Part shown: in pieces, positions 1 to 51,363 of the stretch
How the letters are laid out: each line of letters starts with the position of its first letter
Position numbering within the stretch: position 1 is the first letter of the stretch
DNA from: a virus
Lineage: Duplodnaviria > Caudoviricetes
Strand: one strand, 5' to 3'
Length of the DNA: 52,304 nucleotides
Virus record (IMG/VR): IMGVR_UViG_3300019458_000043
Span: 1 to 52,304 of that record
The notes under the pieces: generated by a model
The model's input: only the letters and a program-made list of their open reading frames with translations
Database searches by the model: none
What the model was told of the DNA's origin: nothing
Translations under genes and position numbers: made by a program

Positions 1-1154
1 ACCTCATCCCTACCCGCCCCGCCGGAGGTAATAACGTCCGGCAGCATATCTCGGAGCGTAAGAATGGGGCTACCCGCCTTCAAGCCGCTCCCGCTAGCAA
101 ACAGTGTCCAGAACTCAGCCGCCTTCGGTTGCATCTTGAAGTTAAGCGCCACGGAGCCATGCTCTTGGTACTTCTCCGGGTCGGTATTGCTCGTCGCCAT
201 CAAGTAGTAGAGGGCACAAGCGTAAGGGAATGACAAGAATCGACTGATCCGCCGACCATCCCTACCGCCCCCGGCCTCGACGCCCCACAGAAAGAGTATT
301 GCGTCCACCAATTTTGGGTGGTTGGCAATAAAATCCAACGCTTCCGAGTGGGGGAAGTGGGGTGCATCGGACACTTTCTGGCCCCCGGAACGCAGCCAAG
401 CTAGCCGGATCGCCCCCGCGAGGGAGTTCGCCAGCCTCTTTTTCACGTTTTCCGTGAAGTACGTGCTGTTGATCGGGTCAACCGGCCCCTCGAACCGTCG
501 ATCCCGATACAGTACATCCCCCAAAGAACGCTTCTGGCCCAGGTCGAGGGTGTCAATTACCTCCCTGGACTCTTTTACACCTCGAACGATGATACATTCC
601 ATCGTTAAGGGGCCGTTGATGCCGAACCGCTTATACACGTTCGGTGTCCTTTGCCGCAACTGCTCGCCCAGGATGAGACCTACGAAGCGGTGGGCGCCAC
701 TCTCGACCTGATCGCAGCGGTCGATGATGATTGTTTCACCATTCAACTGCCATTTGCTCCGCAACAACTCACTCATATACCGCCGAGCGAGGGCAATCCG
801 AAACGGCCGGTTCTTGACGTTGTTGGCTAGGAAGACTTTTGTGCGATTGTAGTCGGAGAAGTGGTAGAAAGTACGTTCATCCTTGGGTACTTCCGTCCAG
901 CCAATCGCTTTCTTGGCTTGCTCAACCGTAAAAGCACCGTGGTTGCCTCCCTTTTGGTACACCGTGGCCGTTACAGCCTTGTGGACCACTTTGGGGGTGG
1001 GGAATTTGAGAAACACAGGTTCTTGCTTCTCACCTTTACCCTTACCTCCCTTCCCTTTTGTTGTTCCTTCGTCACCCGACTCATTTTGTTGGTGTTCCGG
1101 TCCGGATTGATGTTTCGGGACTGGCCGTCGTTTCAAACTCAAACCTGTACTCAT
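1..1154 (-). CDS. ParB/Srx-like phage protein, runs off the left edge (not in the supplied ORF track)
   Basis: Manual translation from ATG 1154 (upstream AAGGGGGA) stays open to base 1. It contains NNVKNRPFRIALARRYMSELLRSKWQLNGETIIIDRCDQVESGAHRF...IIVRGV...IDTLDLGQKRSLGDVL, matching the NRxL...W.LNGE.I..D....DGQHRL...VRG...DT.D.G..RS pattern of phage ParB-like proteins. Confidence 0.7.
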   Translation of the reverse strand, partial: MSTGLSLKRRPVPKHQSGPEHQQNESGDEGTTKGKGGKGKGEKQEPVFLKFPTPKVVHKAVTATVYQKGGNHGAFTVEQAKKAIGWTEVPKDERTFYHFSDYNRTKVFLANNVKNRPFRIALARRYMSELLRSKWQLNGETIIIDRCDQVESGAHRFVGLILGEQLRQRTPNVYKRFGINGPLTMECIIVRGVKESREVIDTLDLGQKRSLGDVLYRDRRFEGPVDPINSTYFTENVKKRLANSLAGAIRLAWLRSGGQKVSDAPHFPHSEALDFIANHPKLVDAILFLWGVEAGGGRDGRRISRFLSFPYACALYYLMATSNTDPEKYQEHGSVALNFKMQPKAAEFWTLFASGSGLKAGSPILTLRDMLPDVITSGGAGRDE

Positions 1155-1212
1155 ACGTTCCCCCTTGTGTGAGATGAAAAACAGGAATCGTCAATTACTG
1201 ACCTTTGCCTAC

Positions 1213-1340
1213 TGCCCCAGCTACTCTGCCCCAGCTACTCTGCCCCAGCTACCCAGCCACCCAGCTACCCAGCTACCCAGCTACCCAGCTACCCAGCTAC
1301 CCAGCTACCCAGTACCTAGCTACCCAGCTACTCTGCCCCC
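1213..1340 (+). repeat. Tandem repeat: 8-bp CCCAGCTA units flanked by 14-bp CCCCAGCTACTCTG units
   Basis: Directly visible; it gives rise to the spurious PATQLPSY ORFs. Confidence 0.95.
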
Positions 1341-1351
1341 ACACACTACCC

Positions 1352-1519
1352 CTACTTGTTCCATCCGTACTGGTTCCACTTACGCTTGCTGCTACTCTTT
1401 TTACCCCCTTTCTTCTCTTTTCGTTTGAAATCCTTGTACGACACCTGCGGTGTCACAGCAGCTTCGATCTCAGTCCTTGTCGAAACTTCCAGATCTCCCA
1501 TCCTAATAATACGAACCAT
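1352..1519 (-). CDS. Small basic hypothetical protein (55 aa)
   Basis: GGAGG RBS before ATG 1519; MVRIIRMGDLEV...KRKWNQYGWNK. Confidence 0.55.
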   Translation of the reverse strand: MVRIIRMGDLEVSTRTEIEAAVTPQVSYKDFKRKEKKGGKKSSSKRKWNQYGWNK

Positions 1520-1587
1520 AGCTTCCTCCATCCTTGCGGTTCTAGGGATTCTGCTGTTTACAGAGTCGCACCCCGCGACAATGCACA

Positions 1588-1653
1588 GCAATAAACGCCA
1601 CTATACCTTACCCCACCACCATATACTATATACTAGGAACTGGCGTTTATTGC
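1588..1653. promoter_or_regulatory. 13-bp perfect inverted repeat (GCAATAAACGCCA / TGGCGTTTATTGC) in the divergent intergenic region; operator candidate
   Basis: Arms at 1588-1600 and 1641-1653 with an AT-rich 40-bp spacer. Confidence 0.6.
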
Positions 1654-1723
1654 ACGGTTTCTGCTAGGTTTTTGCTATAACCCTAATGCTGGCAATAGGT
1701 TAGGGCAATTTTGCTAGGGGGGC

Positions 1724-4925: not shown

Positions 4926-4949
4926 CATTCCATTGCACTAATAAAAACC

Positions 4950-6206
4950 ATGCCACCCAGAACACTTCCCAAAAAACGCAAAACAGCCCCAGTAAATATT
5001 GTGGCAACCCCAAATCTTAAACATTCATTATGGCAAGGCCCGGAGAAGGACGGAATAACTTTCTCGTTACTATCTCGGTTCCTTTGCTGTCGTGAACGAT
5101 TTCGTCTTCGCGTGGTCGAGGGGTTGGTTGAGGACGAAGGCTTTAACCACACCATTGAGTTTGGCTCGATCTGGCACGCCGGCGAAGAGGCCTTTGCTCG
5201 AAAGAATGACTGGGCACAGGCAATGGCAAACTACACATCCGTTTTGTTTCAGAAGTACCCCACCGATGAAAAAGAGATTGCCAAGTGGTATTCTATCGCC
5301 AAAGCCCAATTCCCCATCTACATCGACTACTGGCGACACCACCCCGACCAGCGGAGGCGGCGGCCGGTTCTTGAGGAAGCTGCTTTTCGCGTACCGTACC
5401 TGCTGCCATCTGGTCGTAAGGTTATTCTTCGTGGCAAATTTGATTGCGTCCTCCTTCTCGGAAATTCGCTGTACTTACAGGAGAACAAAACAAAGGGAAC
5501 TATTGATGAGGAGGGAATCCAAAAAACCGTTGCCCAAAACTTGCAAACGATGCTCTACCAGATAGCCCTTCGACAGTCATTGCAACACATCGCAACAGCG
5601 GGACAGAATGACTGGTTTATAACCAACATCTGTGGTTCCAGACCGCATGAAAGTATTTTGTGTGAGCTAACCCCATTTCGTTCACCAAAGAGGGGCTACA
5701 AGATAGGTGGTGTCATCTACAACGTAGTCCGTCGGCCACTAGCGGATCGTTTCGCGATCAAACAACGTAAGAGCGAAACCTTACCCCAATTCTACAAACG
5801 GCTTGCCAGCGTCATCAAAGGAAAACCAGACTATTTCTTCCACCGTTGGAACGTTGGGTTGCAACAGTCGGACATCAATCGCTTCCGCCAGCGAGTGTTC
5901 GACCCCATACTCGAACAACTTTGCGACTGGTGGGAATGGGTATCTGTAGATCCTTTCGACCCTTGGACCCCTCGGATGCTATTTCGCGTTCAAAGCTCAA
6001 ACGAGTGGAAGCTAGCTATGGTTAGTAACACCCACAAAACATCTCTCCCCCGCAACCAAACCCACTTCCAAGCCCCCTGGGGAGTCTATAACTCTCTAGC
6101 TGGCGGGTTTCGAGGTGACTACTTTGACTTTCTCACTTCCGAGGGCCGACGCACTTCTGGCCTTCGTAAAATCGACAATCTCTACCCTGAACTAACCTCG
6201 GAGTGA
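4950..6206 (+). CDS. PD-(D/E)XK exonuclease (RecB/Cas4-like phage recombination nuclease)
   Basis: TFSLLSRFLCC, FGSIWH, LRGKFD...LQENKT, QTMLY. Confidence 0.8.
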   Translation: MPPRTLPKKRKTAPVNIVATPNLKHSLWQGPEKDGITFSLLSRFLCCRERFRLRVVEGLVEDEGFNHTIEFGSIWHAGEEAFARKNDWAQAMANYTSVLFQKYPTDEKEIAKWYSIAKAQFPIYIDYWRHHPDQRRRRPVLEEAAFRVPYLLPSGRKVILRGKFDCVLLLGNSLYLQENKTKGTIDEEGIQKTVAQNLQTMLYQIALRQSLQHIATAGQNDWFITNICGSRPHESILCELTPFRSPKRGYKIGGVIYNVVRRPLADRFAIKQRKSETLPQFYKRLASVIKGKPDYFFHRWNVGLQQSDINRFRQRVFDPILEQLCDWWEWVSVDPFDPWTPRMLFRVQSSNEWKLAMVSNTHKTSLPRNQTHFQAPWGVYNSLAGGFRGDYFDFLTSEGRRTSGLRKIDNLYPELTSE

Positions 6207-7308: not shown

Positions 7309-7363
7309 ACTTGCTAATAAACGCCGCGTTTCACCACTCTCCCCCAAAGAAAAGGAAAGCCCT

Positions 7364-9496: not shown

Positions 9497-11487
9497 AACT
9501 ACTGGCAGTTGACACGGAAACTACCGGAGTCGATTTGTGGCACGGGTGCAAGCCCTTCTACGTTTCGACCTGTAACGAGGATGGGGCAATGCGATCCTGG
9601 GAATGGGATGTGAACCCAGAGACACGGGAACCTATCATCCCGCAACGAGAAAAGCGTGAGGTTTACCTTTACCTCGCCAAGCACCAACTCATCTTTCATA
9701 ATACAAAGTTTGACGTGCGTGGTTTGAATCGTATCGGTATCACCATCGACCGATGGGATATGCACGACACACTGGTTGCCAGCCACGTTGTTGCTTCTGG
9801 GGAATCACATAAGTTGAAAGATTTGGCTTTGTTACACCTCGGTATCGACGATAGGGATCAGCAGTCACTGCAAGAGGCTGTTAATGAGGCACGTCGCTAC
9901 GGTCGTTCGCTAGGTTGGCGAATCGCCAAAGTTGGTGATCCACATTTCCCTGCTATGAAAAAGACAGCCAAGGATGGTTGGTGGCCTATGGATATGTGGT
10001 TGCCGCGTGCGGTTGCAAAGCACGCCGGCTATCCGAAAAATCATCGTTTCTGGAGCGTATGCTCGAACTACGCCGATACCGACGCCGAGCGTACCATAGG
10101 TTTATGGTACGCTCTTTGGGATGAGATGAAACAGGAGGACTTACTCGATATTTACGAAACCCGTCGCAGGCTTTTGGAAGTTACGTTTATTATGGAAGAA
10201 CGTGGAGTTACAGTAAACCGTAGCCGCTTAATAAACGCCAGAAAAATATATATACGTAAAGCCCAAGCAGCCGAATCACTCTGTTTTAGGCTGGCCGACT
10301 TCAAGGTCGATAACTTAGCTAGCCCCAAACAAGTCGAAGGTCTTCTATACGGTAACTTCGGCCTCAAACCGATCAAACAGACAAAGGCGAGCACGCCCGA
10401 CAACCCACACTTTGCTACCGACAAAGATACAATCAGCAAACTCCAAACACAAGTGCGACCACAAAGTAGGGCTGGGTTGTTCCTCACTAATCTGGTTGCC
10501 AATCGTAAAAATCGCAAAGCTGCAAGCTATCTCGACGAGTACGAAATACGTGGGATGACACCCTACTATCTCGATATGAAAGCACAGCGGTTGTGGTGGG
10601 TTCTAAACCCTAACTTTAATATCACTGGTACTCGCACCCCGCGATTCTCCAGCAACAGCCCAAACCAGCAGAACGTGTCGAAGCAAGAGGTTCGTGACGA
10701 GGATGGCAATATCGTTGAATCTTACAACCTTCGAGAGGTGTTCGGGCCTGTACCGGGTCGCGAATGGTATTCACAAGATTATGAGAACATCGAACTTCGC
10801 ATCTTTGCATATTCATCAGGGGACAAGCGGCTTATCAAAGCCTTTGAATCCGGGTACAGTGTCCATCTACTCATAGCCGAAATTCTCTTTCCTAAAGAGT
10901 GGAAGCTATGCCAGCGACTTGGCGTGTCGTTCAAGGATTATTACAAATCGACACTTTACCAGTGGACTAAAAACGGCAACTTCTCTATTATCTACGGGGC
11001 CAGTGAGGCTAAGGCCGACTCAACTTACCATTTGGATGGTGCTTATGCCAAGGTACGCAAAGAGTTTCCACTTATAAGGCGAGTAACTGAGGAAAAGTCG
11101 AACGAAGCCAGGGAATACGGTTACGTGACTACTCTAGGTGGTTATCGCCTCCAGGTGGCTAGCAACGAACCGCACAAAGCACTCAACTATTTTGTCCAGG
11201 GTACTGCCGGCTGGTGCATAATCCTAGGTATGGTCCGCATTTTCGAGTACCTACGAGATTTTCCCAGCTACTACATGATTATGCAAATCCACGACGAACT
11301 GGACTTCGACTTTCCAAAGCACAAACGGAATCTTGCAATAATCTCTGAATGTGCTAGATTGATGGCCCAAAGTGGTGGTGATATTGGTATTCCTACCCCA
11401 GTCGATGTTTCCCGCCACCGACAGACCTGGGCACAAGGCGAGCACGTCACCACTACATCCCTAGATAATTCACGGATCGCAGTATAG
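9493..11487 (+). CDS. polA: DNA polymerase family A with 3'-5' exonuclease
   Basis: ExoI DTETTG, ExoII HNTKFD, ExoIII YADTD; motif A DYENIELR, motif B KNGNFSIIYG, motif C QIHDEL. Confidence 0.95.
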   Translation: MKLLAVDTETTGVDLWHGCKPFYVSTCNEDGAMRSWEWDVNPETREPIIPQREKREVYLYLAKHQLIFHNTKFDVRGLNRIGITIDRWDMHDTLVASHVVASGESHKLKDLALLHLGIDDRDQQSLQEAVNEARRYGRSLGWRIAKVGDPHFPAMKKTAKDGWWPMDMWLPRAVAKHAGYPKNHRFWSVCSNYADTDAERTIGLWYALWDEMKQEDLLDIYETRRRLLEVTFIMEERGVTVNRSRLINARKIYIRKAQAAESLCFRLADFKVDNLASPKQVEGLLYGNFGLKPIKQTKASTPDNPHFATDKDTISKLQTQVRPQSRAGLFLTNLVANRKNRKAASYLDEYEIRGMTPYYLDMKAQRLWWVLNPNFNITGTRTPRFSSNSPNQQNVSKQEVRDEDGNIVESYNLREVFGPVPGREWYSQDYENIELRIFAYSSGDKRLIKAFESGYSVHLLIAEILFPKEWKLCQRLGVSFKDYYKSTLYQWTKNGNFSIIYGASEAKADSTYHLDGAYAKVRKEFPLIRRVTEEKSNEAREYGYVTTLGGYRLQVASNEPHKALNYFVQGTAGWCIILGMVRIFEYLRDFPSYYMIMQIHDELDFDFPKHKRNLAIISECARLMAQSGGDIGIPTPVDVSRHRQTWAQGEHVTTTSLDNSRIAV

Positions 11488-11495
11488 GAGTAAAC

Positions 11496-12695
11496 ATGGG
11501 TCATAAAGATCTCGGTGTACGAAACTACAACCCTTCCCTTGCCGCCCAGCAAACCAAAACTGGCAAGACCTACTTGGACAAAATTCGTAAGTTATCCCCT
11601 TACGAACGGTTGCTGTATTGGGTTTGCGAACGGCACCAAATCCACATCAACCGTTTTCCAGAGGGTGCCTACCCAACCGGCTGGTCCACAACAAACGGAA
11701 CCACGAGACGACAACGAACTCGGCATGTCAGTCAGACCGACCCACCTTGGACCGAAGACCCAATCCTCCAAACTGTATTCTTTTGCAACCCTTATCGGGA
11801 GAATGACAAAGTTACCGCTTACCTTCGCGATAATTTTAGGGAGAAGAACAAAAACAGCCCGTCGGCTTTTATGGGGTGTATTCTGCTCCGCTGGTACAAT
11901 TATATCCCAACTATGTCGAAGTTAATAAAAGCCGGGATTCCACACTCATTCGATACCGGCAAAGGCAAGCATGGTTGGGACTTACGTACCTACCTCTCTA
12001 TGTTAACCAAATTGCGTGACGAACGAAACGAACAGCTCTTTGGTGGTGCCTACATTATCCGCCCAATCGTTGATGGTAAGACAGGCGCTCGCAAGGTGGA
12101 GAGCATTGGCGAGTTACTTACCAATATGGCACTCGACGCCGACCTTTATCCACAAATTACTGGCAAGCACAAAACCCTGATGGGTCTTTCGCCCAGAACT
12201 TACGAGTCTTTGGGTAGTTCGACAGACGAAGACCAAGCCGGTTCGATGGCTTTTGCCTTTGCTCGACTCCGCGAGTTTAGTGGGATGGGCAAGTTTTACA
12301 ACTACCAGTTTATAGGGGACTTAGCTTACACCCACGTACTCCACAACGCTCCAGATTGGTTGACCTGGGGGTTCTGTGGCCCCGGTACCTCGCGAGGGTT
12401 GGTACGTCTTAACTGCCCATCTGGTAAAGCTACGTTACCGAACGGCAAGCGACTCCCTCGCCTTATGCCACTCCAACGAGGCTGGCAGGAACGATTGTTG
12501 CACGTCCAGGAACGAGTGAATAAGGATTTGAACCTTTCCCCCAAAAAAGATAGCAAGAACGGCGGCGAGGTTAGGCGGATGCAATACATCCACATGAGAG
12601 ACTTGTGCAACTGTCTTTGCGAGTACGATAAGTACGAGCGTGCCCTATTCAACGAACGGTCAATAAAGCGACCGTATTACGGACAAGGCAATTAA
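11496..12695 (+). CDS. aGPT-Pplase1-like thymidine hypermodification protein (HhH glycosylase-like fold)
   Basis: ERHQI...PPWTEDPILQ..FFCNPYRENDKVT; GMGKFYNYQFIGDL; GPGTSRGL; NCLCEYDKY. Confidence 0.85.
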   Translation: MGHKDLGVRNYNPSLAAQQTKTGKTYLDKIRKLSPYERLLYWVCERHQIHINRFPEGAYPTGWSTTNGTTRRQRTRHVSQTDPPWTEDPILQTVFFCNPYRENDKVTAYLRDNFREKNKNSPSAFMGCILLRWYNYIPTMSKLIKAGIPHSFDTGKGKHGWDLRTYLSMLTKLRDERNEQLFGGAYIIRPIVDGKTGARKVESIGELLTNMALDADLYPQITGKHKTLMGLSPRTYESLGSSTDEDQAGSMAFAFARLREFSGMGKFYNYQFIGDLAYTHVLHNAPDWLTWGFCGPGTSRGLVRLNCPSGKATLPNGKRLPRLMPLQRGWQERLLHVQERVNKDLNLSPKKDSKNGGEVRRMQYIHMRDLCNCLCEYDKYERALFNERSIKRPYYGQGN

Positions 12696-15576: not shown

Positions 15577-17797
15577 ACTCAAAGACGCCCCAGACAAAGT
15601 CAAGCCTTTCCTTTTCTTTGGGGTGGAGTGCGACCCACACCCCAAACAGACACAAGGTACTTGCCCTTTCTGCCACGCTGAAAAACTCGGTATCGAATCC
15701 GAAACCGGAAAGTGGCAATGCCTCAAGTGCAAAGCCGGGGGCAATATCTATTCGTTTCTTCGCGTTCTGTACGACGAGTCCTATCAACAAAGCGGTAATG
15801 TACGCGACTATAACGCTTTCGCCAGCGAACGGAATCTCCGCCCCGAAACACTGAGGGCTTGGGGGTTAGTAAAATCCGTTACCACTGGTGACTGGTTGTT
15901 ACCAGGTTATAACGAAACCGGGAAACTTACAAACCTCTACAAGCTGGCTGAGGTGGGTGGTAAGCAACGTGCTCTCTCCACCCCAGGCTGCAAACTCCAA
16001 CCGTTCGGCACTTTATTGCTCAAGACCGAGCACAAAACGCTCTACATTACTGAGGGCTGGAGTGACGGTATGAAGTTGTGGGAAACCCTACAAACTCTTC
16101 GAGCCGGGGCGAACGGGCTAATAAAAACCAAAAATCCAACCCAAGCCCTAGCAGCTACAAGCGGCGTCCTCGCCATGCCAGGGGCCGCCGCTTTCCAAGA
16201 GTCGTGGCTAACCCACCTTGCCAATCGGCACGTTATTCTACTCTTAGACAACGACCACCCCAAACGATTTCCTCCAGACCACCCCAAGGCCGGCAAGGTG
16301 ATGCTCCACCCAAAAACCCGTAATAAGATTATACCGGGTTGGGATGGACAACAGCGTATAATTACTATGGCCCAGAAAGCCGATACCCCGCCCAAGTCTA
16401 TGAAACAGATTGTATGGGGCGACGGCGGGTTCGACCCTGAAATGACAGACGGCCTGGACATTCGCGACATTATCAACGAGATCGGCCCGCTCGCCGGGGT
16501 CCAGTATTTGCTGGACAGGGTTCAGCCCGTTCAACTCTCCCCAAAGAAAACCGAACCCGGTCAAGCTGTAGCTGTCGACCCAGTTGAATGCACCACCTTC
16601 ACAAACCTTACAAAGCACTACCATGATACACTCCACTTCTCGCGACAGATGGAAGATTCACTGGTAGTCATGCTAGCTGTTGTTCTCTCGACCGATCTGC
16701 GAGGGGATCAATTATGGTTGCGTGTTATCGGCCCACCAGGGTCCGGCAAATCAACGCTCGCCGAAGCCATCACCGCTGCCCAGGACTATATTTACGCTTC
16801 GTCCCTTTTTACTGGGTTCCACTCAGGCTACTTGGGGGACAAAGGCGAACGAGCCAAAGGTTCGGCCTCTCTGGTCCCCCAGATGGACGGAAAAACAGTT
16901 GTTATAAAGGATGGTGACACTTTGCTCAACTCGTCGGGTTGCAACCGCATTCTATCAGAGTTACGTGACCTATATGACGGCACTTCCAGAGCCAGGTACC
17001 GTAACCGCGAGCAAGGGTTATACGAAGGTCTACGTATCACGTTCATCTTGTGTGGAACCGACGAGCTTCGGTCCTTGAACCGAACGCACTTAGGGGAACG
17101 GTTCTTGGATTGTGAGGTGTTAGGTAACGAGGATACTACCCCTTACCTGAACCGTGCAATCAAAAACGCTTTCTCCCAATTATCGACCGGGCTTGCCAAT
17201 GGTTCTCCCGACCACACTGGGGTTGGTGTTGAAGATAATATGCTGGTTATCAAGCAGGCTACATTCGGTTTTATCAGACACTTAAAGGAAACACTCTCCA
17301 GTACCACCCCGCCGACCCATACCACCGAAGTCGATAATGTCATTGGGGCACTAGCCCAGATAGTCTCTTACGCCCGTGCCCACGTCAAGCGTGACGGGCA
17401 GGATATCTCTTACCGGCCACGACCGGAGTTGGCAACCCGGTTGGGTGCCCAGTTTACTCGGCTCTCTGTTTGTATGGCAATCGTTCTCGGAAAACAAGAG
17501 TTGGATAAAACCGTGGTTCGTATCTTGCGAAAAGTAGCCCATGACACCTGCCAGGGTTTCCGCTTCGAGGTAATGAATCTTTTAGCCAGCAGACCCAGCT
17601 TATCCGCTGTCCAGTTATCGAGGAAACTCGGCTTAGCCGAAACCGCCGTTCGGCGGTTGTTGTATGACATGCTCGAGTTTAAGATCATCGAGCGTGTCTC
17701 CCGGCCCAATAACTCCGGACAACGTGGTCGCGACGTTCACCTGTGGAAGTTAACGCAAGCCATCCACTCTCTCTGGAAGGTTGCGTTTGGTCACTAA
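15569..17797 (+). CDS. Primase-helicase: Zn finger + TOPRIM + AAA+ ATPase + winged helix
   Basis: CPFC...CLKC; ITEGWSDG, LLDND; GPPGSGKST; RERF-like GERFL; C-terminal HTH LSAVQLSRKLGLAETAVRR. GTG start overlaps the upstream stop. Confidence 0.85.
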   Translation: MVKLKDAPDKVKPFLFFGVECDPHPKQTQGTCPFCHAEKLGIESETGKWQCLKCKAGGNIYSFLRVLYDESYQQSGNVRDYNAFASERNLRPETLRAWGLVKSVTTGDWLLPGYNETGKLTNLYKLAEVGGKQRALSTPGCKLQPFGTLLLKTEHKTLYITEGWSDGMKLWETLQTLRAGANGLIKTKNPTQALAATSGVLAMPGAAAFQESWLTHLANRHVILLLDNDHPKRFPPDHPKAGKVMLHPKTRNKIIPGWDGQQRIITMAQKADTPPKSMKQIVWGDGGFDPEMTDGLDIRDIINEIGPLAGVQYLLDRVQPVQLSPKKTEPGQAVAVDPVECTTFTNLTKHYHDTLHFSRQMEDSLVVMLAVVLSTDLRGDQLWLRVIGPPGSGKSTLAEAITAAQDYIYASSLFTGFHSGYLGDKGERAKGSASLVPQMDGKTVVIKDGDTLLNSSGCNRILSELRDLYDGTSRARYRNREQGLYEGLRITFILCGTDELRSLNRTHLGERFLDCEVLGNEDTTPYLNRAIKNAFSQLSTGLANGSPDHTGVGVEDNMLVIKQATFGFIRHLKETLSSTTPPTHTTEVDNVIGALAQIVSYARAHVKRDGQDISYRPRPELATRLGAQFTRLSVCMAIVLGKQELDKTVVRILRKVAHDTCQGFRFEVMNLLASRPSLSAVQLSRKLGLAETAVRRLLYDMLEFKIIERVSRPNNSGQRGRDVHLWKLTQAIHSLWKVAFGH

Positions 17798-21151: not shown

Positions 21152-21196
21152 TTTCCTACCCGTAGTATTTCTGCCTTAGCAAATCTGTGGCATAAT
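21152..21196 (+). promoter_or_regulatory. Candidate late promoter 1
   Basis: TTTCCTACCCGTAGTATT, 21-bp spacer ending in TGG, then CATAAT. Confidence 0.55.
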
Positions 21197-21245
21197 AAAA
21201 ACCAGTTTCCGGGCCTTATGTACCTTTACCCCTACTGGTGCAACC

Positions 21246-23183: not shown

Positions 23184-23382
23184 CAAGGACCACCCAATTT
23201 GGAAAACCATCCAGTTTGGTGTCACCATCGGCTCGCTGGCTCTGTTCCTTCGGTTTAACTACAACACCTTCGATGAACGAGACTTGAAAACCATCGGCGG
23301 GACTGTAGTAGCTTACTTGTTGGCCCAATTCGCCCCGTTCCTGTTACCCGGCAATAAAAACCAGAATCCACCCGCCGCATAG
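23167..23382 (+). CDS. Small two-TM membrane protein (holin-like candidate)
   Basis: GGAGG RBS; two hydrophobic segments. Confidence 0.5.
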   Translation: MGKLLDKDHPIWKTIQFGVTIGSLALFLRFNYNTFDERDLKTIGGTVVAYLLAQFAPFLLPGNKNQNPPAA

Positions 23383-26143: not shown

Positions 26144-26205
26144 CCCCCGGTTAATAAAAACCAAACCTTCGGGGCCATGCCCCAACAACACAAGGAGAAT
26201 CGAAG

Positions 26206-28031: not shown

Positions 28032-28526
28032 ATGGCACCTACAACTGGTTTCAACAACAAACTCTATCGAAACACCGGCAGCGTAGCCACCCCGGTATGG
28101 TCCGAAGTGAATCAGATCGGTGACGTTTCTATCGACGGCCTTACCCGCGGCCTTGCAGAGTTGAAGCGGCGGGCAACCCAGTTCACCCTCAACCTACCAT
28201 CACTCATCCAATCCATCACTGCTAGCTTCCGCTTGCATCATGGACTCGACAGTTCCACGTTCACGGCACTCCGACAAGCGTTCTTCGCCGCCACAGTCAT
28301 CGAGTGGGCTATCATGGACGGTGATATCGACGTAGCTGCCGCCGAAGGGTTGCGTATCCCTATGCTAGTGTCCGACTTTCCGTGGGAACAACCATTGGAA
28401 GACGTTTCGGGCCACGACGTAAAGCTGGCCGTCGGTTACATGACTAGTGGCGGCAATGAAGTTGTTCCATCTTGGCTAGTCGTTTCACAGAATCTCCAGT
28501 GGACAACCACCACAACCACCACGTAA
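28032..28526 (+). CDS. Major tail (tube) protein ending in TTTTTTT
   Basis: GFNNKLYRNTG..ATPVWSEV..IGDV...LRQAFF...VSDF...QPLED; AGGAG RBS; seven C-terminal Thr. Confidence 0.75.
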   Translation: MAPTTGFNNKLYRNTGSVATPVWSEVNQIGDVSIDGLTRGLAELKRRATQFTLNLPSLIQSITASFRLHHGLDSSTFTALRQAFFAATVIEWAIMDGDIDVAAAEGLRIPMLVSDFPWEQPLEDVSGHDVKLAVGYMTSGGNEVVPSWLVVSQNLQWTTTTTTT

Positions 28527-28564
28527 TAAAAACCAAAATCTCTAACCCATAGGGGGAACCACTC

Positions 28565-30970: not shown

Positions 30971-31010
30971 CGCTTTGGCAATAAAAACCACTTTCAGAAA
31001 GGGGAACCCG

Positions 31011-32801: not shown

Positions 32802-32814
32802 TCAGGAGGCGACA

Positions 32815-33102: not shown

Positions 33103-33547
33103 AGCGGTAGGTTTAGAAGACCACCAACGAATGTTAAAGGATTTCCGAAACCGAATCGCCGACACCCACAAACTTCAGATGAAACAACTCGGTATGAAGG
33201 AGGATGAAGTAACCGAGGAAAAACCAGGAGAGGAGGACACTATGGGGGTTGCTCTAGCTCGAGACATCATTTACAACATCAATACCCCGACCACCCCACC
33301 ACCATCAGCAGAACTAAAGGGAGAACCCCAGGCAGCGGTTCCACTCCCACCAAACCCGGTAACTAATAAATCTCCTTGGTGGAAGCCTATGCTGCCTGCC
33401 GCTATCGGTGCCGGCCTCACCGGGATCGGCCTCGCGGGGTGGGATTGGCTCAGCTCATCTCCCCCAAAAGAAAACCCAGCCCCGGTCACAATCAACCAAC
33501 TTGATTCGTTACAGTACGACTTGCAGTTCGGGAAACCTTCCCGCTAA
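32990..33547 (+). CDS. Membrane-anchored Pro-rich protein
   Basis: TM-like WWKPMLPAAIGAGLTGIGLAGW; overlaps the previous ORF. Confidence 0.55.
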   Translation: MGNLPDSDPNQSSTLHNPLKQAAELIALWGPQLSAGAKAVGLEDHQRMLKDFRNRIADTHKLQMKQLGMKEDEVTEEKPGEEDTMGVALARDIIYNINTPTTPPPSAELKGEPQAAVPLPPNPVTNKSPWWKPMLPAAIGAGLTGIGLAGWDWLSSSPPKENPAPVTINQLDSLQYDLQFGKPSR

Positions 33548-33580
33548 TAAAATCCAAAAATTGCCACTAGGGGAACCATA

Positions 33581-35180: not shown

Positions 35181-35190
35181 GGAGATCCAA

Positions 35191-35463: not shown

Positions 35464-35466
35464 GGT

Positions 35467-38253: not shown

Positions 38254-39173
38254 TGCCCCTACACTTAGGTATAAAAGACAGTTCCACAGAAAGTACCGTT
38301 AAGGTGGAACTAAAGAGCGGTACGTTAGCTTTGGAGCACAAAACTCGTAAAGATACTCACTACGTTCTAGCCGACGATATTCTTGATGATGAGGATGCTA
38401 TTCTAGCTACTACCGGCGTACCCGGTATGTACTCTATTCAAAGCGGGTGTGTAGTAACAGATTTGAACCCTAGTGTATCATCAACTATCATCCACCCAAC
38501 AACAGGTTTGCTAACACAGTTATGGGAAGTCGAAGTTTCCTATGACTCCAACGTTCCGCCGGACATAAACCAACCGATTACCTCTCAAACACCCAAGGTG
38601 CGTTGGTACCCAGAAGCTGAGGAAGAGGTTCTTGAGAAGGATGCGATCACTAACGAGCCAATTACCACCGCTTGCGATGAGCCAATCATCATCGAGCACC
38701 AATACTACCAGATTATCCAGGAAATTCGTCGGTACGAGGCTTACCCATTTGACCAGCTTCTCCAGTACACCTATGGCAACCACGTCAACGAAACAGAGTT
38801 TTGGGGTGCCCCACCGGGTTGTGCCCTTCTCCTTCCAATGGAAGTTGAGGAGGAAGCCATCAACCAACAACGATTTTGTATTGTAACCTACAAGGTAAAA
38901 TACAAGATCCGATTTGACGACAACGGCGACATGCTGGAAGATACACACAAAGCTGCCCCGCTCCATCAAGGAAACCTTTACTTCCCAAAACTGGATATAG
39001 CCCTAAGCCCGCTGGGTGTCCCCAAGCGTTTCCTCGACAAGGATGGCAACCCCGGTACTGTCAACCTGGACATTTTCGGTGTACCGCTACCCCCAGGCCA
39101 ACCACCCCAGTACCTCTCATTCAATCGGTTCCCTAAAGCTGACATAAACTTGTTGAACCTCGGCCCCTTCTAA
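38253..39173 (+). CDS. Distal tail/baseplate protein
   Basis: Follows tape measure; WEVEVSY, VNETEFWGAPPG. Confidence 0.6.
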   Translation: MPLHLGIKDSSTESTVKVELKSGTLALEHKTRKDTHYVLADDILDDEDAILATTGVPGMYSIQSGCVVTDLNPSVSSTIIHPTTGLLTQLWEVEVSYDSNVPPDINQPITSQTPKVRWYPEAEEEVLEKDAITNEPITTACDEPIIIEHQYYQIIQEIRRYEAYPFDQLLQYTYGNHVNETEFWGAPPGCALLLPMEVEEEAINQQRFCIVTYKVKYKIRFDDNGDMLEDTHKAAPLHQGNLYFPKLDIALSPLGVPKRFLDKDGNPGTVNLDIFGVPLPPGQPPQYLSFNRFPKADINLLNLGPF

Positions 39174-39189
39174 TAAAAACCAAAATCCC

Positions 39190-41322: not shown

Positions 41323-41333
41323 AGGGGAACAAG

Positions 41334-43298
41334 ATGAAACTTACAGTAGGGATGGCTACCTACGATGATTACGACGGTGTAGTTTTTAGCATCCAAGCCT
41401 TGCGGCTCTATCACCACGTCGATGAGCTACTGGTTGTAGATAACAACCCCGGTTCGCTTGCCGCTCGGCACCTCGCCGATTTTTGTCAAAAAACTGGGGC
41501 ACGGTATATCCCTATGCCGGAGCCCGTAGGGACTTCCGCCCCTCGCAATCGCGTCTTTACCGAAGCTACCGGCGATGTTGTATTATGTATGGACAGCCAT
41601 GTACTAATCCAGCCAGGTGCTTTGCAATTACTTCGAGAGTGGTTTATTGATGTATCATCCCACAACGATCTCGATATGGCCCTGCTTCACGGGCCGATGA
41701 TGCTCGACTCCTTCAATGGTATTCAGACACACTTCGATAGTGTCTGGCGTGCCGAAATGTGGGGTATCTGGGGTCACGCTTGGCGATGCCGTTGTTCAGA
41801 CCACGCCCGGTTCATTTTCTCAATGCAACCGTCTGAGTACCAGCAAACATACTACCTGCCAATCTCCCCCAAAGAAAACCTCGCTGCCTGCCCCTACTGT
41901 GGTAACAAACTCCCCGACCTATCTTGGTCCCAACACGAATCTCAAATGTTGGCCCTCGGCTTTGAGCCTTGTGCTCTAAAAGACGATGAACCCGCGTTCG
42001 ATATTCCAGGCCAGGGTCTCGGTCTCTTTGCCTGTCGTAAAGATGCGTGGTTAGGCTTTAACCCACACTTCCGCGGCTTCGGTGGGGAGGAAATGTATAT
42101 CCATGAAAAGTTTCGGAAAGCTAACCGCCGTGTGTTTTGTCTCCCATTCCTCAAATGGTGGCACCGCTTCGGGCGTCCCAGTGGGGTAAAGTATCCACTA
42201 ACCCGCTGGAACAAGGTCCGCAACTACGTGCTCGGCCACAACGAATTGGGGTTGCCACTCGATCCGGTCCATGCCCATTTTGTAACCACCAACCTCATGA
42301 CCCAAAGCCAGTGGGACTACCTGGTAGCCGATCCTATCCATCGGCCTTCCAACCCGAATGTATTGTCGGTACCTTCCCCCAAAGAAATCCCAGCCCCGTC
42401 CATAACTCAACTGTACCAGGCAGCCCGTGGGACATCTCGAGATCTTGACCAACATATGGATCAGTTGCGGTTGTTGGCGGGGCTTTGTGATAACATAACT
42501 GAGATATCAAAACGAAAAGAATCCACCATCGCTTTTGTTGCCAGCGGCCGTCCAGTCATTTCCTACAATACTGAGTCTGGGGACCAAACCTACCAAACCC
42601 TAATCCGCATAGCCCCCAACTTCCAATGGCACGACCAAAACTCCACGCAAGTCGAGTCTATCGCAGCTACCGACCTGTTGTTCATCGACTCCGAACATAC
42701 CTACGCACGGTTGAAGGAGGAACTGAACAAGTACGCTACCGCTGTCCGACGGTTTATCATATTACATGATACTCAGTTGCACGGCGAGCGGGGGGCCGAC
42801 AACGGGCCAGGTCTAAACCAGGCATTGCGAGAGTTTACAGCCGACAACCCCGCTTGGTTCGTCTATTATTACACACCTAACCAGTTCGGGTTAACGGTAC
42901 TTGGTATCCGACCGAGTGACCGCCCAGCTAATAAAATCCACGCTTGGGCACCTATGTATGGTCCCGGTACCGAGCTAACTAATTTACTCAGTTCGCTTGG
43001 TGTCGTGTCCAAACCGAACTGTACCTGTCGGGCAATGGCAAACCAGATGGATATCTGGGGGGTCCAGGGTTGTAGAGAGCCGGCCCATCACCAGCAGATT
43101 CTTACCACCATCCATAGTAACAAAGACAAGTGGGGGTGGAAGGATAGGGTACTTGCCATCACAAAGGCTGTTACTAGTGGTCTAGCATTTAAGCTAAACC
43201 CACTCGACCCATTCCCCTCCCTGATCGACGAAGCGATCCGACGAGCGGAGTTAGCTGAACAATCAAGACTTACTTCCATCGAAATTGAAGGCCACTGA
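41334..43298 (+). CDS. GT2 glycosyltransferase fused to a class I methyltransferase-like domain and a Cys-containing C-terminal domain
   Basis: LTVGMATYDD, LLVVDNNP, VLCMDSH, FRGFGGEE; DLLFIDSEHTY...IILHDT; GPGTEL...CTC...WG..GC. Confidence 0.85.
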   Translation: MKLTVGMATYDDYDGVVFSIQALRLYHHVDELLVVDNNPGSLAARHLADFCQKTGARYIPMPEPVGTSAPRNRVFTEATGDVVLCMDSHVLIQPGALQLLREWFIDVSSHNDLDMALLHGPMMLDSFNGIQTHFDSVWRAEMWGIWGHAWRCRCSDHARFIFSMQPSEYQQTYYLPISPKENLAACPYCGNKLPDLSWSQHESQMLALGFEPCALKDDEPAFDIPGQGLGLFACRKDAWLGFNPHFRGFGGEEMYIHEKFRKANRRVFCLPFLKWWHRFGRPSGVKYPLTRWNKVRNYVLGHNELGLPLDPVHAHFVTTNLMTQSQWDYLVADPIHRPSNPNVLSVPSPKEIPAPSITQLYQAARGTSRDLDQHMDQLRLLAGLCDNITEISKRKESTIAFVASGRPVISYNTESGDQTYQTLIRIAPNFQWHDQNSTQVESIAATDLLFIDSEHTYARLKEELNKYATAVRRFIILHDTQLHGERGADNGPGLNQALREFTADNPAWFVYYYTPNQFGLTVLGIRPSDRPANKIHAWAPMYGPGTELTNLLSSLGVVSKPNCTCRAMANQMDIWGVQGCREPAHHQQILTTIHSNKDKWGWKDRVLAITKAVTSGLAFKLNPLDPFPSLIDEAIRRAELAEQSRLTSIEIEGH

Positions 43299-44585: not shown

Positions 44586-44589
44586 TATC

Positions 44590-45099: not shown

Positions 45100-45208
45100 A
45101 CATCACCTCATTAAAAAGAGTTGAACCTAGCACTTTTCCCCAGCAATAAAAACCACATTTCCCGACCGTACCCCTTATATTCTTTATTCTTTGGGGGGAA
45201 ATAGCTAG

Positions 45209-45240
45209 GGGGTTGCGACCCTATTATAAGTCGCAACCCC
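45209..45240. terminator. Hairpin downstream of the helicase gene
   Basis: GGGGTTGCGAC-N10-GTCGCAACCCC, lying between two AATAAAAACCA copies. Confidence 0.45.
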
Positions 45241-45285
45241 CCAGCAATAAAAACCACATTCCCACCCACCCCGCGACTCTGTTGG

Positions 45286-47340: not shown

Positions 47341-47486
47341 GCTAGAACCCTTTGCTAATAAAAACCAGTGTCTGAACCCAGTACACCCACAACACTCTCC
47401 AACCACACACCTCGACATCCCGCTGCTTTTACTTACTGGTACGCTGTACCTTACTGGGCTGGTACGCCGTACTCCGAGCAAGTACA

Positions 47487-48258: not shown

Positions 48259-49412
48259 GCTACACCCCCCTTCGTTTTGCGTTTCGCTGCTTTTACCTCC
48301 TGCTGTTGTCCCTTCACAGCATTGACCAACACCCGCCCCGCCCGTTGGAACTTCGCTCGGTAGTCTTCCCCCATCGGCTTGTTGCACGATACGACCAGCT
48401 GTGTCCACCGCTCGCGGCGGTCATAGCTATGCACCAAAAGATATTCGGCCATCGAAACCGCCTTGCTGCCGTTCCATTCCACCATAACGAGCTTATCCTT
48501 TGCCCGAAGTTGTCTGATGTAATGTTCACCACCAGCACAGTTCTTTAGCATCTTGGCAGCAGTTACCAACTCGGCCGGGTCTTTAACCAACCGAAGAACA
48601 TTGCCCCCAAACTTTACCGAACCCTGGAATGGGAATGGGGCGGAAGCAAACCGCAGCTTACGCATATCTTCCTTTTCGATACGGCGTTGGGCCCAACCCC
48701 GAAAGTCCTCGAACGTGCGACACCGGGCTAACTGTTCTTGGGTTATATGCTCCAACTCATCAAACAGCCCCTCGCCTTCGGCAGCCCACTTCTCCCTATG
48801 TGCTGCCAGGAATTGTAGGACATACGGCGGAAGCCCCTGTTGCACCGCCTCCACGAACCTGCCGGGCAGCCCATACCCTTCAGCCGCCACCATCGTCGGT
48901 GTCGGGAACTCTGTAGCACCGTTCGATAGGTTGAATACCTTGGCTGTAGCTGCCATGACATCGAACGGGCCAAAGTAGAAGAGGTACAAGTCGCGGCCCC
49001 GGTGGCACTGATACCAGTCCGCATAAACAGTATAAATATCCCAGTACCCCATCAGACCAACCCATACATCACTCGGTCGAAACCCAGTGATGTTTTGAAT
49101 GTGATCCAACAAACACTTTTGCTTGGGGTTTACCTTAACGGTCGGTTCCTGCCCCATAAGCCGGTCATAATTGGTAATACCCCCGTACTTGCCGCCAACA
49201 CCGATAAGACCACCACCACGTTTCGGCCCAGGGTCACGAAACATAGCATGTCGCCCCCGCATACCCAACCCATCCAACACAGTCATTGCATACGACTTTG
49301 CCTGTTCCTCCGTATAACCAGCTTCGCAAGCCTTGCGGTAACTATACAAAGTCCGCATGTATTGCAGAACAGTCAGCTTTTCACGCAACGTCGCACTCTT
49401 TGGCAAAGCCAT
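48255..49412 (-). CDS. PcfJ-like domain protein
   Basis: C-terminal ELVTAAKMLKNCAGGEHY...QLVVSCNK resembles the PcfJ EL..EG..M.HCV..Y pattern. Confidence 0.55.
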   Translation of the reverse strand: MALPKSATLREKLTVLQYMRTLYSYRKACEAGYTEEQAKSYAMTVLDGLGMRGRHAMFRDPGPKRGGGLIGVGGKYGGITNYDRLMGQEPTVKVNPKQKCLLDHIQNITGFRPSDVWVGLMGYWDIYTVYADWYQCHRGRDLYLFYFGPFDVMAATAKVFNLSNGATEFPTPTMVAAEGYGLPGRFVEAVQQGLPPYVLQFLAAHREKWAAEGEGLFDELEHITQEQLARCRTFEDFRGWAQRRIEKEDMRKLRFASAPFPFQGSVKFGGNVLRLVKDPAELVTAAKMLKNCAGGEHYIRQLRAKDKLVMVEWNGSKAVSMAEYLLVHSYDRRERWTQLVVSCNKPMGEDYRAKFQRAGRVLVNAVKGQQQEVKAAKRKTKGGVA

Positions 49413-49505
49413 AGTTCATTCCCTTATTTAGAGTTTGCCACAAATAAAAACCACGTTTCCTATCCCGGTCGCCAGCATAATTCCCCAGCGTATATCGCGG
49501 GGGCT

Positions 49506-50543
49506 TTACTGTTCACCCCCCAGCCCCAGCAAAGCCCCAAAGTTGTCAACGTTCTTCCACCCCTGCCTCTCTCGCTTCGGTTGCGGAGCCGCCGCGAGTA
49601 CGTATTCACCTTCCCCCAAAGAAAGCCAAGGGGGGAACCCCCCACCGTGGCCGTTCCGCATTTTCAGTTCGATCTTGTTCGTTACGTTGTAGCGAACCTG
49701 GATATCGTCGCGTAATTCGCCCCCAGGGTGTTCGGCAGTCGCTTCGGTCCTACCATGTCGCAACTCCACATACCGGCCGCCCTCGGTGTACTCTTTGCCC
49801 CGCTGCACCCACCGATGGAGTATCGACTGTACCTCCTCGACGAAGCAACCCTTGCAGAAGTGCTTGTTGGTCCGCCATTTCCCGTTCACGTACTCGCCCC
49901 ATGCCCAGACATTGCCAAGGCCAGTATCTTCGATTTCGTAGTGGGCGTAATACTCCGGTGTACGACCCCCCAGCCGGGCCAGTCGCCTCTTTTCGTATTC
50001 CCGCTTCATCTCGGCCAATGCCCGAAGGGCTAGCAACCCTCGGTTCTTACTCTTTAGGTCGTTCAATACACCGACCACCTTGCGTTCCTCTCGCTTCGGG
50101 GCCTCAACCGGGCCGCCGAAATTGCTGCAAGATACATTCGGGCAGGCCCAGATCGACCCTTTGCCAGCCATATACCTGTTGCGGACACGATGGCCCCGTC
50201 GTTTGTTGGTAACAATTTGTTCTGGCGTAGCCCGCTCCGCAAACGTGCCGCATTCGGGGCAGGGGAACAACCAGTTCATTTCCTCCGCCTTCTCATGGTC
50301 CTCGACCAGTTCCACCGACCCTTGTATTTGCCATCGCCATACGCCAACCTTGCCGGTTCGCTTACCCTCCGATAGTACCTCGACTTGCTGCAACGTCCGC
50401 AACAGCCGCGTATCACTTTGTTGCGACGCTGGGTAAAACTTACGTTCGTAGAGGTTGTACTCGCTGGCGAACTGGGTGTTGCAACCCCCACACTTGGTCC
50501 TTGCGAGGGGCATGAAGTATTCGTTTTGGATGTGCATAGCCAT
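49506..50543 (-). CDS. Hypothetical protein with several CxxC pairs
   Basis: CGGC, CPEC, CPNVSC, CKGC; GGGAG RBS. Confidence 0.65.
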   Translation of the reverse strand: MAMHIQNEYFMPLARTKCGGCNTQFASEYNLYERKFYPASQQSDTRLLRTLQQVEVLSEGKRTGKVGVWRWQIQGSVELVEDHEKAEEMNWLFPCPECGTFAERATPEQIVTNKRRGHRVRNRYMAGKGSIWACPNVSCSNFGGPVEAPKREERKVVGVLNDLKSKNRGLLALRALAEMKREYEKRRLARLGGRTPEYYAHYEIEDTGLGNVWAWGEYVNGKWRTNKHFCKGCFVEEVQSILHRWVQRGKEYTEGGRYVELRHGRTEATAEHPGGELRDDIQVRYNVTNKIELKMRNGHGGGFPPWLSLGEGEYVLAAAPQPKRERQGWKNVDNFGALLGLGGEQ

Positions 50544-50718
50544 AACTATTCTCCCTAGTGTTTGTAGGTACTAAACATTTCCCTGCCAACCTCGCCGCAC
50601 CCCTACGCATCTTCCGGCATGTGTTGGGGGTACAATGGGGTCGGTCGCACTACACGCCGACCCAGCCCCCGCGAGGGCTTGGCCGGGGCTTGGCCCCCAG
50701 TATAACCGATTCGGGGCG

Positions 50719-50916
50719 TCAATACTGACACTCCGAGATCGGTACGAGTGTCATGCACTCGCGGTGATCGTAGCCGGTATGCACGCCACGCCGGCAATAG
50801 TCGCACGCCGAGGCGTGCAGTCCTCTGGTCAGGCCGTAGCGTGCGGCCTCTGTCTCGATTTCGTGTGCAGACCCAGCGGTCAGCAGATCAATTAGCCGGT
50901 CGTATTCTCGCATCAT
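50719..50916 (-). CDS. Small hypothetical protein
   Basis: GGGAG RBS; CDYC...H...HREC. Confidence 0.4.
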   Translation of the reverse strand: MMREYDRLIDLLTAGSAHEIETEAARYGLTRGLHASACDYCRRGVHTGYDHRECMTLVPISECQY

Positions 50917-51053
50917 TTTTCTCCCGGCCCTTGCGGGCCAACTGCGTTTCACCTCGCCAGGTTGCGGCAGTGTGCCGCAAGTACCCGTTGCCGGATGCGA
51001 GCCGGCTTACGCTGACGGGCAGAGCGGATTAGACACCTTGCCTGGTTGGGGGT

Positions 51054-51305
51054 TTACCGCTTTCGCGTTACGATATCCGAAACCTGCCACCCGAAAGATA
51101 GCCACCGACCTGTTGTTGGCTGAATATCCTTCCCTTCTACAGTCCTTGCCAACCGCACCGACCGTTCCTCAATCTCGTAATAACCTTTGACGACAATGTT
51201 CTTCACAGCAGAATCGTCGGCAGGGTAGCAGTAGTCATACCGTAGCATATCCAGCGGGAAGTACCCAACCCCCGTTACTACAAAACTCTGGTAATAACCA
51301 GCCAT
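51054..51305 (-). CDS. Small conserved-looking phage hypothetical protein
   Basis: GAGGTG RBS; FVVTGVGYFPLDMLRYDYCYP...PTTGRWLSFGW. Confidence 0.7.
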   Translation of the reverse strand: MAGYYQSFVVTGVGYFPLDMLRYDYCYPADDSAVKNIVVKGYYEIEERSVRLARTVEGKDIQPTTGRWLSFGWQVSDIVTRKR

Positions 51306-51363
51306 GTCACACCTCATTTGTTGGAGTTGTTGGCGTTTGCCGTGTTAATAAAAACCAGTTCCG

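Follow-up and report, generated by a model that had tools for sequence, protein, structure and literature searches.

The 11-mer AATAAAAACCA recurs on one strand only of IMGVR_UViG_3300019458_000043, an IMG/VR record of a tailed phage (Caudoviricetes) that was analysed over its full length of 52,304 nucleotides (hereafter the window), and its orientation follows the axis of the genome regardless of the direction in which the neighbouring genes are read. The behaviour of the motif in the window and in related phages is less suggestive of an ordinary promoter than of a signal for a unidirectional process on the chromosome. We tentatively read it as a strand-specific DNA-processing site, used for nicking or for lagging-strand priming, a reading that we favour but would not call probable. 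The link to a one-way chromosomal process is drawn from the polarity of the motif, its density in both gene arms, its even spacing, the copies inside genes, and the strand asymmetry of the genomes.

In the window, the + strand carries 13 exact copies of AATAAAAACCA and no copy of its reverse complement, where 0.03 copies are expected from dinucleotide shuffles (0 of 100 shuffles reach 13) and 0.02 under an order-3 Markov model. Allowing one mismatch adds three copies of AATAAAATCCA, which results in 16 copies on the + strand and none on the − strand, with 1.16 expected. These numbers agree exactly with those of a first-pass annotation of the same DNA, which had also judged that such a word should occur by chance far less than once. 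The wider family AATAAA[AC]NC[CA]N has 21 members on the + strand and one on the − strand (Table 1).

No near-identical phage was found in the cultured-phage collection, where the best portal matches reach ~25% identity, and no relative was found in the genome collection. The portal protein has hundreds of metagenomic homologues at 50–65% identity, many of them on contigs of 50–60 kb; relatives were picked by portal similarity within this range from one collection, and 12 contigs were taken whole (G001 and onwards, with the window as G000). A profile scan of viral contigs returned 35 loci. On the 35.9-kb contig G001, a scan with the 11-mer found 13 exact copies and one variant, all on one strand, and the bias between strands was similar in G003 (11 vs. 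0), G004 (7 vs. 0), G005 (5 vs. 0), G002 (7 vs. 1), and G006 (6 vs. 1). De novo word counts identified the 11-mer as one form of a family that combines an invariant AATAAA with a lineage-specific tail, namely AACCA in the window and G001, CGCCA together with AACCA and CACCA in G003 and G006, ATCCA, CGCCA, and CTCCA in G004, CCCAA in G008 (14 vs. 0), CCCC(G/A) in G007, CGCAA in G011, ATCAA in G012, and tails with a final T or G in G002. Over the window and the 12 relatives' contigs, 148 family members lie on the strand of the structural genes and 6 on the opposite strand. Conservation in related phages, which the first-pass annotation had named as a check, is therefore borne out, as 10 of the 12 contigs contain the family. 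The invariant core and the variable 3' half point to a sequence-specific reader that differs between lineages, and we infer that this reader is encoded by the phages themselves. A coarse table of orthologue identities revealed no protein as an outlier that would vary together with the motif variant. When viral contigs were scanned for tandem pairs of the 11-mer, 13 loci with 2–6 copies each were returned, none of them among the relatives from the portal-based searches.

Polarity is most telling where transcription is reversed. Genes of the window are read rightward from 2036 to 44182 and leftward from 44590 to 51845 and from 3 to 1519. The six copies among minus-strand genes (327, 45145, 45246, 47357, 49443, and 51347) are all unflipped, as had been described, and the + strand of these regions is T-rich (AT skew −0.05 to −0.15), so that base composition fails to explain the A-rich orientation of the motif. 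The same holds throughout the clade: no flip occurs in the minus-strand arm of the window, G001, G002, G003, G004, G007, or G008, and all 22 copies in blocks of opposite-strand genes keep their orientation (12 in genes and 10 between genes), these copies not all being independent because G003 and G004 share the one in gene 3–1154 at an identical residue position. The 6 opposite-strand family copies all fall outside such blocks. Judged from positions in the window, the density of the reverse arm is at least equal to that of the forward arm (~8 copies in ~9 kb vs. 13 in ~42 kb). The earlier statement that the genome axis, rather than transcription, sets the orientation of the motif thus stands and can be generalised to the clade.

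The chromosomes are asymmetric along the same axis. GC skew on the + strand is negative throughout the window, and the third-codon GC skew of the motif strand in forward and reverse genes, respectively, is −0.19 and −0.18 in the window, −0.19 and −0.18 in G002, −0.24 and −0.25 in G003, and −0.24 and −0.22 in G004. This is an asymmetry of the genome axis that is independent of transcription.

Copies are also spaced evenly, with a median gap of 2.4 kb and a coefficient of variation (CV) of 0.50 in the window. The gaps are more even than expected by chance in 8 of the 11 genomes tested, including against a null model that draws sites from gene junctions (window, P = 0.002; G001, CV 0.44, P = 0.003; G003, CV 0.49, P < 0.001; G006, CV 0.40, P = 0.003; G011, CV 0.14, P = 0.005; G002, G004, and G008, CV 0.58–0.61, P = 0.02–0.04). 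Evenness was not significant against this junction null in G007, G010, and G012 (CV 0.61–0.64).

Most copies had been placed at gene junctions, and we found 12 of the 16 window copies to be intergenic compared to ~14% non-coding DNA (binomial P ~6e-8, with crude gene calls from our own codon-usage script), while four lie inside open reading frames (ORFs; 327, 16120, 42930, and 23353). The stop codons reported to overlap the motif at 28524, 33545, and 39171 are indeed present, the ORFs ending at 28526, 33547, and 39173 stopping at a TAA within the motif. Despite their differing tails, the relatives have copies at recurrent junctions, including portal|protease-capsid (also occupied in G003, G004, G011, and G012), 28032|28565 (the copy at 28525; also in G002, G004, and G011), the junction before 33581 (the copy at 33546; also in G002, G008, and G011), and the one before the tape measure gene. 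In-gene copies use the frames AAT-AAA or A-ATA-AA, which avoid a stop codon, and often coincide with domain boundaries or linkers of long genes. The DNA polymerase genes of G007 and G008 have variants of their own ~6 codons from the window copy; because these lineage variants lie a few codons apart in a non-conserved stretch, they point to selection on the DNA word. The copy at 16120 overlaps a conserved L-I-K-T peptide and may partly be a coding by-product, and coding constraint may likewise contribute at 327, since the same 11-mer occurs at the same residue (~aa 272–289) in the G003 and G004 orthologues. Conservation is limited to 11–12 nt, the flanks having a pyrimidine at −1 and a weak GC at −3/−2, and no −35 element is present in the aligned flanks.

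As a DNA-processing site, the motif would be a recognition site on DNA, in its local form of the clade-wide AATAAA(A/C)NCC(A), for a strand-specific process that runs one way, and one strand would be processed site-specifically at intervals of ~2–3 kb. A first option would be localized nicks of the kind found at the nick-associated motifs of tf/LUZ24, phiKMV, and T5. Alternatively, the sites may be fixed lagging-strand starts in a one-directional, rolling-circle-type replication, which would account for the ~2.5 kb period; unsealed junctions of such discontinuous synthesis would themselves look like nicks. The short conserved stretch without a −35 element is counted in favour of DNA processing, as is the presence of genes for a family A DNA polymerase, a primase-like protein, nucleases, and a UvrD-like helicase.

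Several observations weigh against nicking or priming. No nickase was identified, and known primases read ~3 nt and not 9–11. The third-codon asymmetry is absent in G001, G007, and G008, all of which have the polar motif, and the family is missing from G009 and G013, two of the 12 relatives' contigs examined. Of the 148 clade copies, 81 are intergenic compared to ~12% non-coding DNA, and the 53 copies between forward genes have a median distance of 25 nt to the next start codon. The late region of the window lacks sigma70-like promoters. In L009, a different element takes the place of the AATAAA family, and near-consensus sigma70-like promoters, located after the terminase-side gene and after the portal, stand at junctions that are occupied by the motif in the window, G003, G004, G011, and G012. 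Moreover, the variant classes are partly regional in the window, G003, and G004, with CGCC forms mainly in the replication and reverse-arm regions and AACCA, ATCCA, and CTCCA mainly in the structural region, which looks like temporal promoter classes. Finally, the nick motifs of the tf group are described as lying to 88% in coding sequence, without intergenic enrichment, and as being unevenly spaced and concentrated on one side of the genome (PMC11780129).

Many of these points are shared with the main rival, in which the motif is a promoter core made of a −10-like AATAAA and a discriminator/start region, without a −35 element, and is served by a host RNA polymerase that the phage redirects, as at T4 late promoters. 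Middle or late transcription would then run one way round the genome, and the copies in the opposite arm would give rise to antisense RNA that helps to shut off early genes. We regard this as a serious possibility, albeit a doubtful one. Besides the intergenic enrichment, the L009 promoters at equivalent junctions, and the regional variant classes, it would account for the position of 37 of the 53 copies between forward genes, which are found no more than 45 nt from the next start and directly precede its ribosome-binding site. In the late region, sigma70-like matches are no more frequent than expected by chance (13 vs. 13.6) and none overlaps a motif copy; the motif is thus not read as a sigma70 promoter, and the late genes need another promoter type. 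In addition, the sole inverted copy in the window (1641) is found in the divergent control region and faces the minus-strand genes, and the promoter specificity of phage groups resembles an invariant core with a lineage-specific tail. A promoter is, however, difficult to reconcile with the 22 opposite-block copies, which face against their genes at equal or higher density, or with the tandem pairs of G003 and G004, which sit in convergent gaps without a downstream plus-strand gene. Nine of the 53 copies end ≤12 nt from the start codon, and in G012 the motif abuts the Shine-Dalgarno sequence, leaving no usable leader; neither even spacing nor in-gene copies are expected of promoters. No gene for a sigma factor, a gp55-like protein, or an RNA polymerase was detected among the proteins scanned with Pfam and PHROGs, many small proteins being unassigned. 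If the motif nevertheless is a promoter, it would represent an unusual case, an early arm with antisense promoters placed systematically at each of its junctions.

Two further transcription signals were considered and rejected. For sigma54, no −24 GG was seen by eye in the flanks 12 nt ahead of the GC that precedes the motif, and no base upstream of −3 is conserved. As for a terminator, a GC hairpin is placed suitably for a minus-strand U-tract at only 2 of the 16 copies (26153 and 51347).

The proximity to start codons could also have its cause at the RNA level, with the motif providing a stop codon, an A-rich spacer, and a ribosome-binding site, or a processing site, on forward polycistronic mRNA. 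Here, 16 of the 53 forward intergenic copies hold the upstream stop codon, the short distance to the next start would be explained, and in G012 the motif runs directly into AAGGA. In the opposite arm, though, the sense mRNA contains the U-rich complement, which makes the same RNA function impossible there, and the in-gene copies occur in two reading frames. This explanation is accordingly the most improbable of those considered.

It is unlikely, though less so than the RNA-level element, that the motif is bound asymmetrically by a DNA-binding protein of the phage, which would act as a polar roadblock, an insulator, or an architectural anchor. Such a site could resemble a stoperator or a fork barrier, its orientation being set by the direction of the machine that is blocked or guided. 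A short, exact, asymmetric site with ~15–20 copies per genome, conserved junctions, and lineage-specific variants is in keeping with this idea, and the divergent control region has an inverted pair on either side of its AT-rich centre, in an operator-like arrangement. Still, a plain double-strand binder gives no reason for a ratio of 148 to 6 unless its action is directional, the orientation ignores transcription, unlike that of L5 stoperators, and no co-varying protein emerged from the coarse orthologue comparison. No repressor or integrase family was found among the scanned proteins, many of which have no family, in a record that is ~74% complete.

The first-pass annotation had itself proposed a binding site for a phage protein, such as a ParB-like protein or a regulator, or a directional signal for packaging, ejection, or replication. 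This interpretation is partly supported, its core inference about the genome axis being the part that was upheld. The 'ParB-like' label for the product of 3–1154 is a weak lead: this protein has no match in Pfam, NCBIfam, or PDB sequence searches, and its Atlas neighbour cluster carries ParB_N on 21% of the members. Nothing ties the 2036–2308 protein or the Zn-ribbon protein to the motif.

A directional role is also inherent to a Chi-like hotspot, which would tame a helicase-nuclease, of the host or of the phage, that enters a concatemer at its free end, the copies facing that end. Like Chi, the motif is polar and over-represented, and Chi is read in one direction by a translocating enzyme. 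Polarity extends over the whole genome with fairly even coverage, a UvrD-like helicase and a PD-(D/E)XK nuclease are encoded, and the motif is on the top strand when the terminase, portal, and head genes read left to right, which is the orientation of active Chi in lambda. However, known Chi sequences are host-defined, G-rich, 5–8 nt long, and not concentrated at gene boundaries, and a second, C-rich polar motif of the window fits their composition better. We therefore give this explanation little probability.

Table 1. Positions of motif copies and of other features in the window and, where indicated, in related contigs.
Feature	Position	Strand	Context
AATAAAATCCA	327..337	+	antisense within the 3–1154 (−) gene
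AATAAACGCCA family copy	1590..1600	+	divergent control region
AATAAACGCCA, sole opposite-strand family copy	1641..1651	−	divergent control region
Exact copy	4940..4950	+	last A is the A of the ATG of PD-(D/E)XK nuclease ORF 4950–6206, whose Pfam domain begins at residue 38
AATAAACGCCG family copy	7316..7326	+	7 nt past Sak4-like gene; second-motif copy 15 nt further
AATAAACGCCA family copy	10230..10240	+	in DNA polymerase gene, exonuclease/polymerase domain boundary (aa 245)
AATAAAAGCCG family copy	11924..11934	+	in 5-hmdU DNA kinase gene
Exact copy	16120..16130	+	in primase-like gene (15569–17797), aa 183
Exact copy	21194..21204	+	41 nt ahead of gene at 21246
Exact copy	23353..23363	+	portal / protease-capsid junction; last 19 nt of a doubtful 71-aa ORF
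Exact copy	26153..26163	+	42 nt ahead of decoration-protein gene
Exact copy	28525..28535	+	holds stop codon of upstream gene
Exact copy	30980..30990	+	20 nt ahead of trypsin-like protein gene
AATAAAATCCA	33546..33556	+	holds upstream stop codon; 24 nt ahead of gene at 33581
Exact copy	39172..39182	+	holds upstream stop codon; 7 nt ahead of ATG at 39190
AATAAAATCCA	42930..42940	+	in glycosyltransferase/methyltransferase-like gene, aa 532
Tandem pair of exact copies (45145, 45246)	45145..45256	+	minus-strand arm; encloses flipped second motif and strong hairpin
Exact copy	47357..47367	+	between two minus-strand genes; 16 nt from called start of UvrD-like helicase
Exact copy	49443..49453	+	between minus-strand genes
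Exact copy	51347..51357	+	between minus-strand genes; GC-rich hairpin follows
AATAAACCCCA family copy	52043..52053	+	near right end of record
Second motif, exact CCCCAAAGAA (n = 12 on both strands)	518, 3220, 7341, 9463, 16538, 28919, 41866, 42376, 46806, 49613	+	
Second motif, exact CCCCAAAGAA	15614, 45187	−	
Tandem-pair module	window 45145–45256; G003 27940–28028; G004 29858–29936; G008 35806–35889; G002 44742–44855	+ (AATAAA motif)	
Thymidine hypermodification set	11496–12695, 13192–13629, 13967–15064, 3249–3869		
CsrA homologue	17816–18100		just upstream of terminase region
Late-gene ribosome-binding sites	28540–28565, 30995–31011, 33560–33581		share GGGGAACC core
Inverted pair GCAATAAACGCCA ... 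TGGCGTTTATTGC	1586–1655		divergent control region
Tandem arrays, CCCAGCTA x11 and 23-nt unit x3.3	1244–1331 and 52089–52167		non-coding, near record ends
GTCGCACC	three in 1565–1914; one at 18215		18215: upstream of terminase gene
GTCGCACC	44269, 44315	−	
TAATTACTAGCTAYTGAGCTTG element with sigma70-like promoters	L009 3015–3160, 7626–7786		

The record, which IMG/VR classes as linear with an estimated completeness of 74%, belongs to a phage of the siphovirus type according to its gene content (Pfam and PHROGs scans). Structural genes include a lambda-type large terminase, a portal, a protease-capsid fusion, and a tape measure protein. Replication and DNA metabolism are represented by the family A DNA polymerase, a primase-like Zn-ribbon/P-loop protein, a Sak4-like annealase, the PD-(D/E)XK nuclease, and the UvrD-like helicase. 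Another nuclease gene is located at 3857–4393. The phage is contained in Logan contigs of two cave-metagenome DNA runs, and no RNA run is among the listed holders. Compared to positions 32305–52304, the contigs of the second run have 25 single-base differences, of which none is in a motif copy (~0.1 expected, and thus uninformative). Contig breaks at ~49462–49472 adjoin the copy at 49443 and are not interpretable, and there are no informative read ends.

The phage further encodes a set of genes for thymidine hypermodification via 5-hydroxymethyl-dU, whose members are a 5-hmdU DNA kinase (PF18723), a MazG/PRA-PH-like protein, a thymidylate-synthase-like enzyme, and a UDG-superfamily protein. 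If T is modified, the complement of the motif would bear 8 modified positions and the motif strand one. A phage-encoded homologue of CsrA (PF02599, E 1e-12) is also present, and the late-gene ribosome-binding sites have an unusual core in common (Table 1).

A second polar family, (T)TC-CCCCAAA-GAA(A), consists of a small TTC/GAA stem and a C-rich loop. With one mismatch allowed it has 14 copies on the + strand of the window and 2 on the − strand, and strand bias is also found in G003 (16 vs. 0) and G002 (20 vs. 0). Variant words occur in G004 (CCCACAGAA), in G001 and G008 (TTCCAGAAA), and in G010. It has no fixed spacing to the AATAAA motif, and its interpretation as a peptide motif was ruled out, as it appears in all three reading frames and antisense in reverse-arm genes. 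Both families meet in a recurrent module, in which two AATAAA-family copies 68–103 nt apart enclose a flipped second motif and an AT-rich stretch of the TATATT type. In the window, the interval forms a strong hairpin (−37 kcal/mol), and in G003 and G004 the module sits in the gap where the gene arms converge.

A dedicated priming code would be a more specific and distinctly improbable variant of DNA processing, in which the phage primase-like protein starts every Okazaki fragment exclusively at the complement of AATAAA(A/C)NCCA. The template would be the displaced strand of a one-directionally replicating chromosome with hydroxymethyl-uracil-derived bases, and the fragment boundaries would be hard-wired ~2.5 kb apart, at gene boundaries and protein linkers. 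Site-specific nicks would then appear wherever such junctions are left unsealed, with the second polar hairpin motif (TTC-CCCCAAA-GAA) accompanying the priming sites as a signal along the same axis.

Additional repeats were found in the window and in other contigs. In the divergent control region, the 13-nt inverted pair surrounds an AT-rich 40-nt spacer with CATATACTATATACTAG, and could be an operator pair, a pair of divergent promoters, or an origin element. The non-coding arrays near the record ends and the copies of GTCGCACC, 6 in total compared to 2 expected, are possible iterons. In L009, the repeated TAATTACTAGCTAYTGAGCTTG element runs into the sigma70-like promoters, which have an extended −10. 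The palindrome CGTTTAAACG is strongly over-represented in G001 (L057/L058), L023, and L027, and CGTTTAAAC is present in G001 with 18 and 17 copies on the two strands, compared to 0.27 expected. In a full-text literature search for the 11-mer, no phage paper was among the matches listed.

Among known systems, the stoperators of L5 and other Cluster A phages are 13-bp asymmetric sites with ~20–30 copies, mostly in short intergenic spaces. They belong to the repressor system of temperate phages and are oriented with transcription in both arms, whereas the motif described here is oriented irrespective of transcription and neither a repressor nor an integrase was seen among the scanned proteins; the contrast to these stoperators drawn by the first-pass annotation is thus a fair one. 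T4 late promoters (TATAAATA) are similar in being AT-rich −10-type words that share ATAAA, lack a −35 element, and lie just upstream of late genes. They point toward the genes under their control and depend on gp55 and gp33, while here all reverse-block copies face against the genes and no gp55 or gp33 homologue was detected among the proteins scanned. Phages of the phiKMV group and T5 encode family A DNA polymerases. They differ from the clade studied here in having 3–5 sites per genome with a GC-rich consensus and no reported even spacing. The likeness lies in localized interruptions on one strand at a conserved consensus, which is CGACNNNNNCCTA/CTCCGG for the nicks of the phiKMV group and is also represented by the major nicks of T5 (as cited in PMC3517423).

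The closest documented case is the nick-associated motif TACTRTGMC / WACTRTGAC of the Pseudomonas phages tf, LUZ24, PaP3, and Rembedalsseter (PMC3517423, PMC11780129). In phage tf, 14 nicks are described, all on the top strand of a genome with two convergent transcription units, with one-mismatch variants on the same strand and sites that relatives share at comparable positions (PMC3517423). In Rembedalsseter, 13 nick-associated copies are again confined to one strand, and a cluster of 61 phages shows enrichment of the motif (PMC11780129). Both systems thus share a short asymmetric word, there with 9–14 copies per 45 kb, which keeps to one strand despite convergent transcription units, has one-mismatch variants on that strand, and recurs at similar positions in relatives with little DNA identity. 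They differ in that nicks were shown physically in the tf group, whereas the motif reported here is a putative nick site. Furthermore, the tf-group motif lies mostly in coding sequence and on one side of the genome, and its indifference to coding and non-coding DNA is not shared by the present motif, which is boundary-enriched, evenly spaced, AT-rich, and variable between lineages in its 3' half. Strand-locked motifs that ignore gene direction are described from few cultured phage groups, where they mark nicks that have been enigmatic for 50 years (PMC11780129). A new clade of uncultured siphoviruses with thymidine-hypermodification genes carries such a strand-locked motif of a different build, in which AT-rich, boundary-placed, and evenly spaced copies combine a conserved core with a tail specific to the lineage and are joined by a second polar motif as partner. 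Through its even spacing and a strand asymmetry that is independent of transcription, the motif is linked to a one-way chromosomal process, and the resulting priming or nicking hypothesis is testable and sharper than what the known systems offer.

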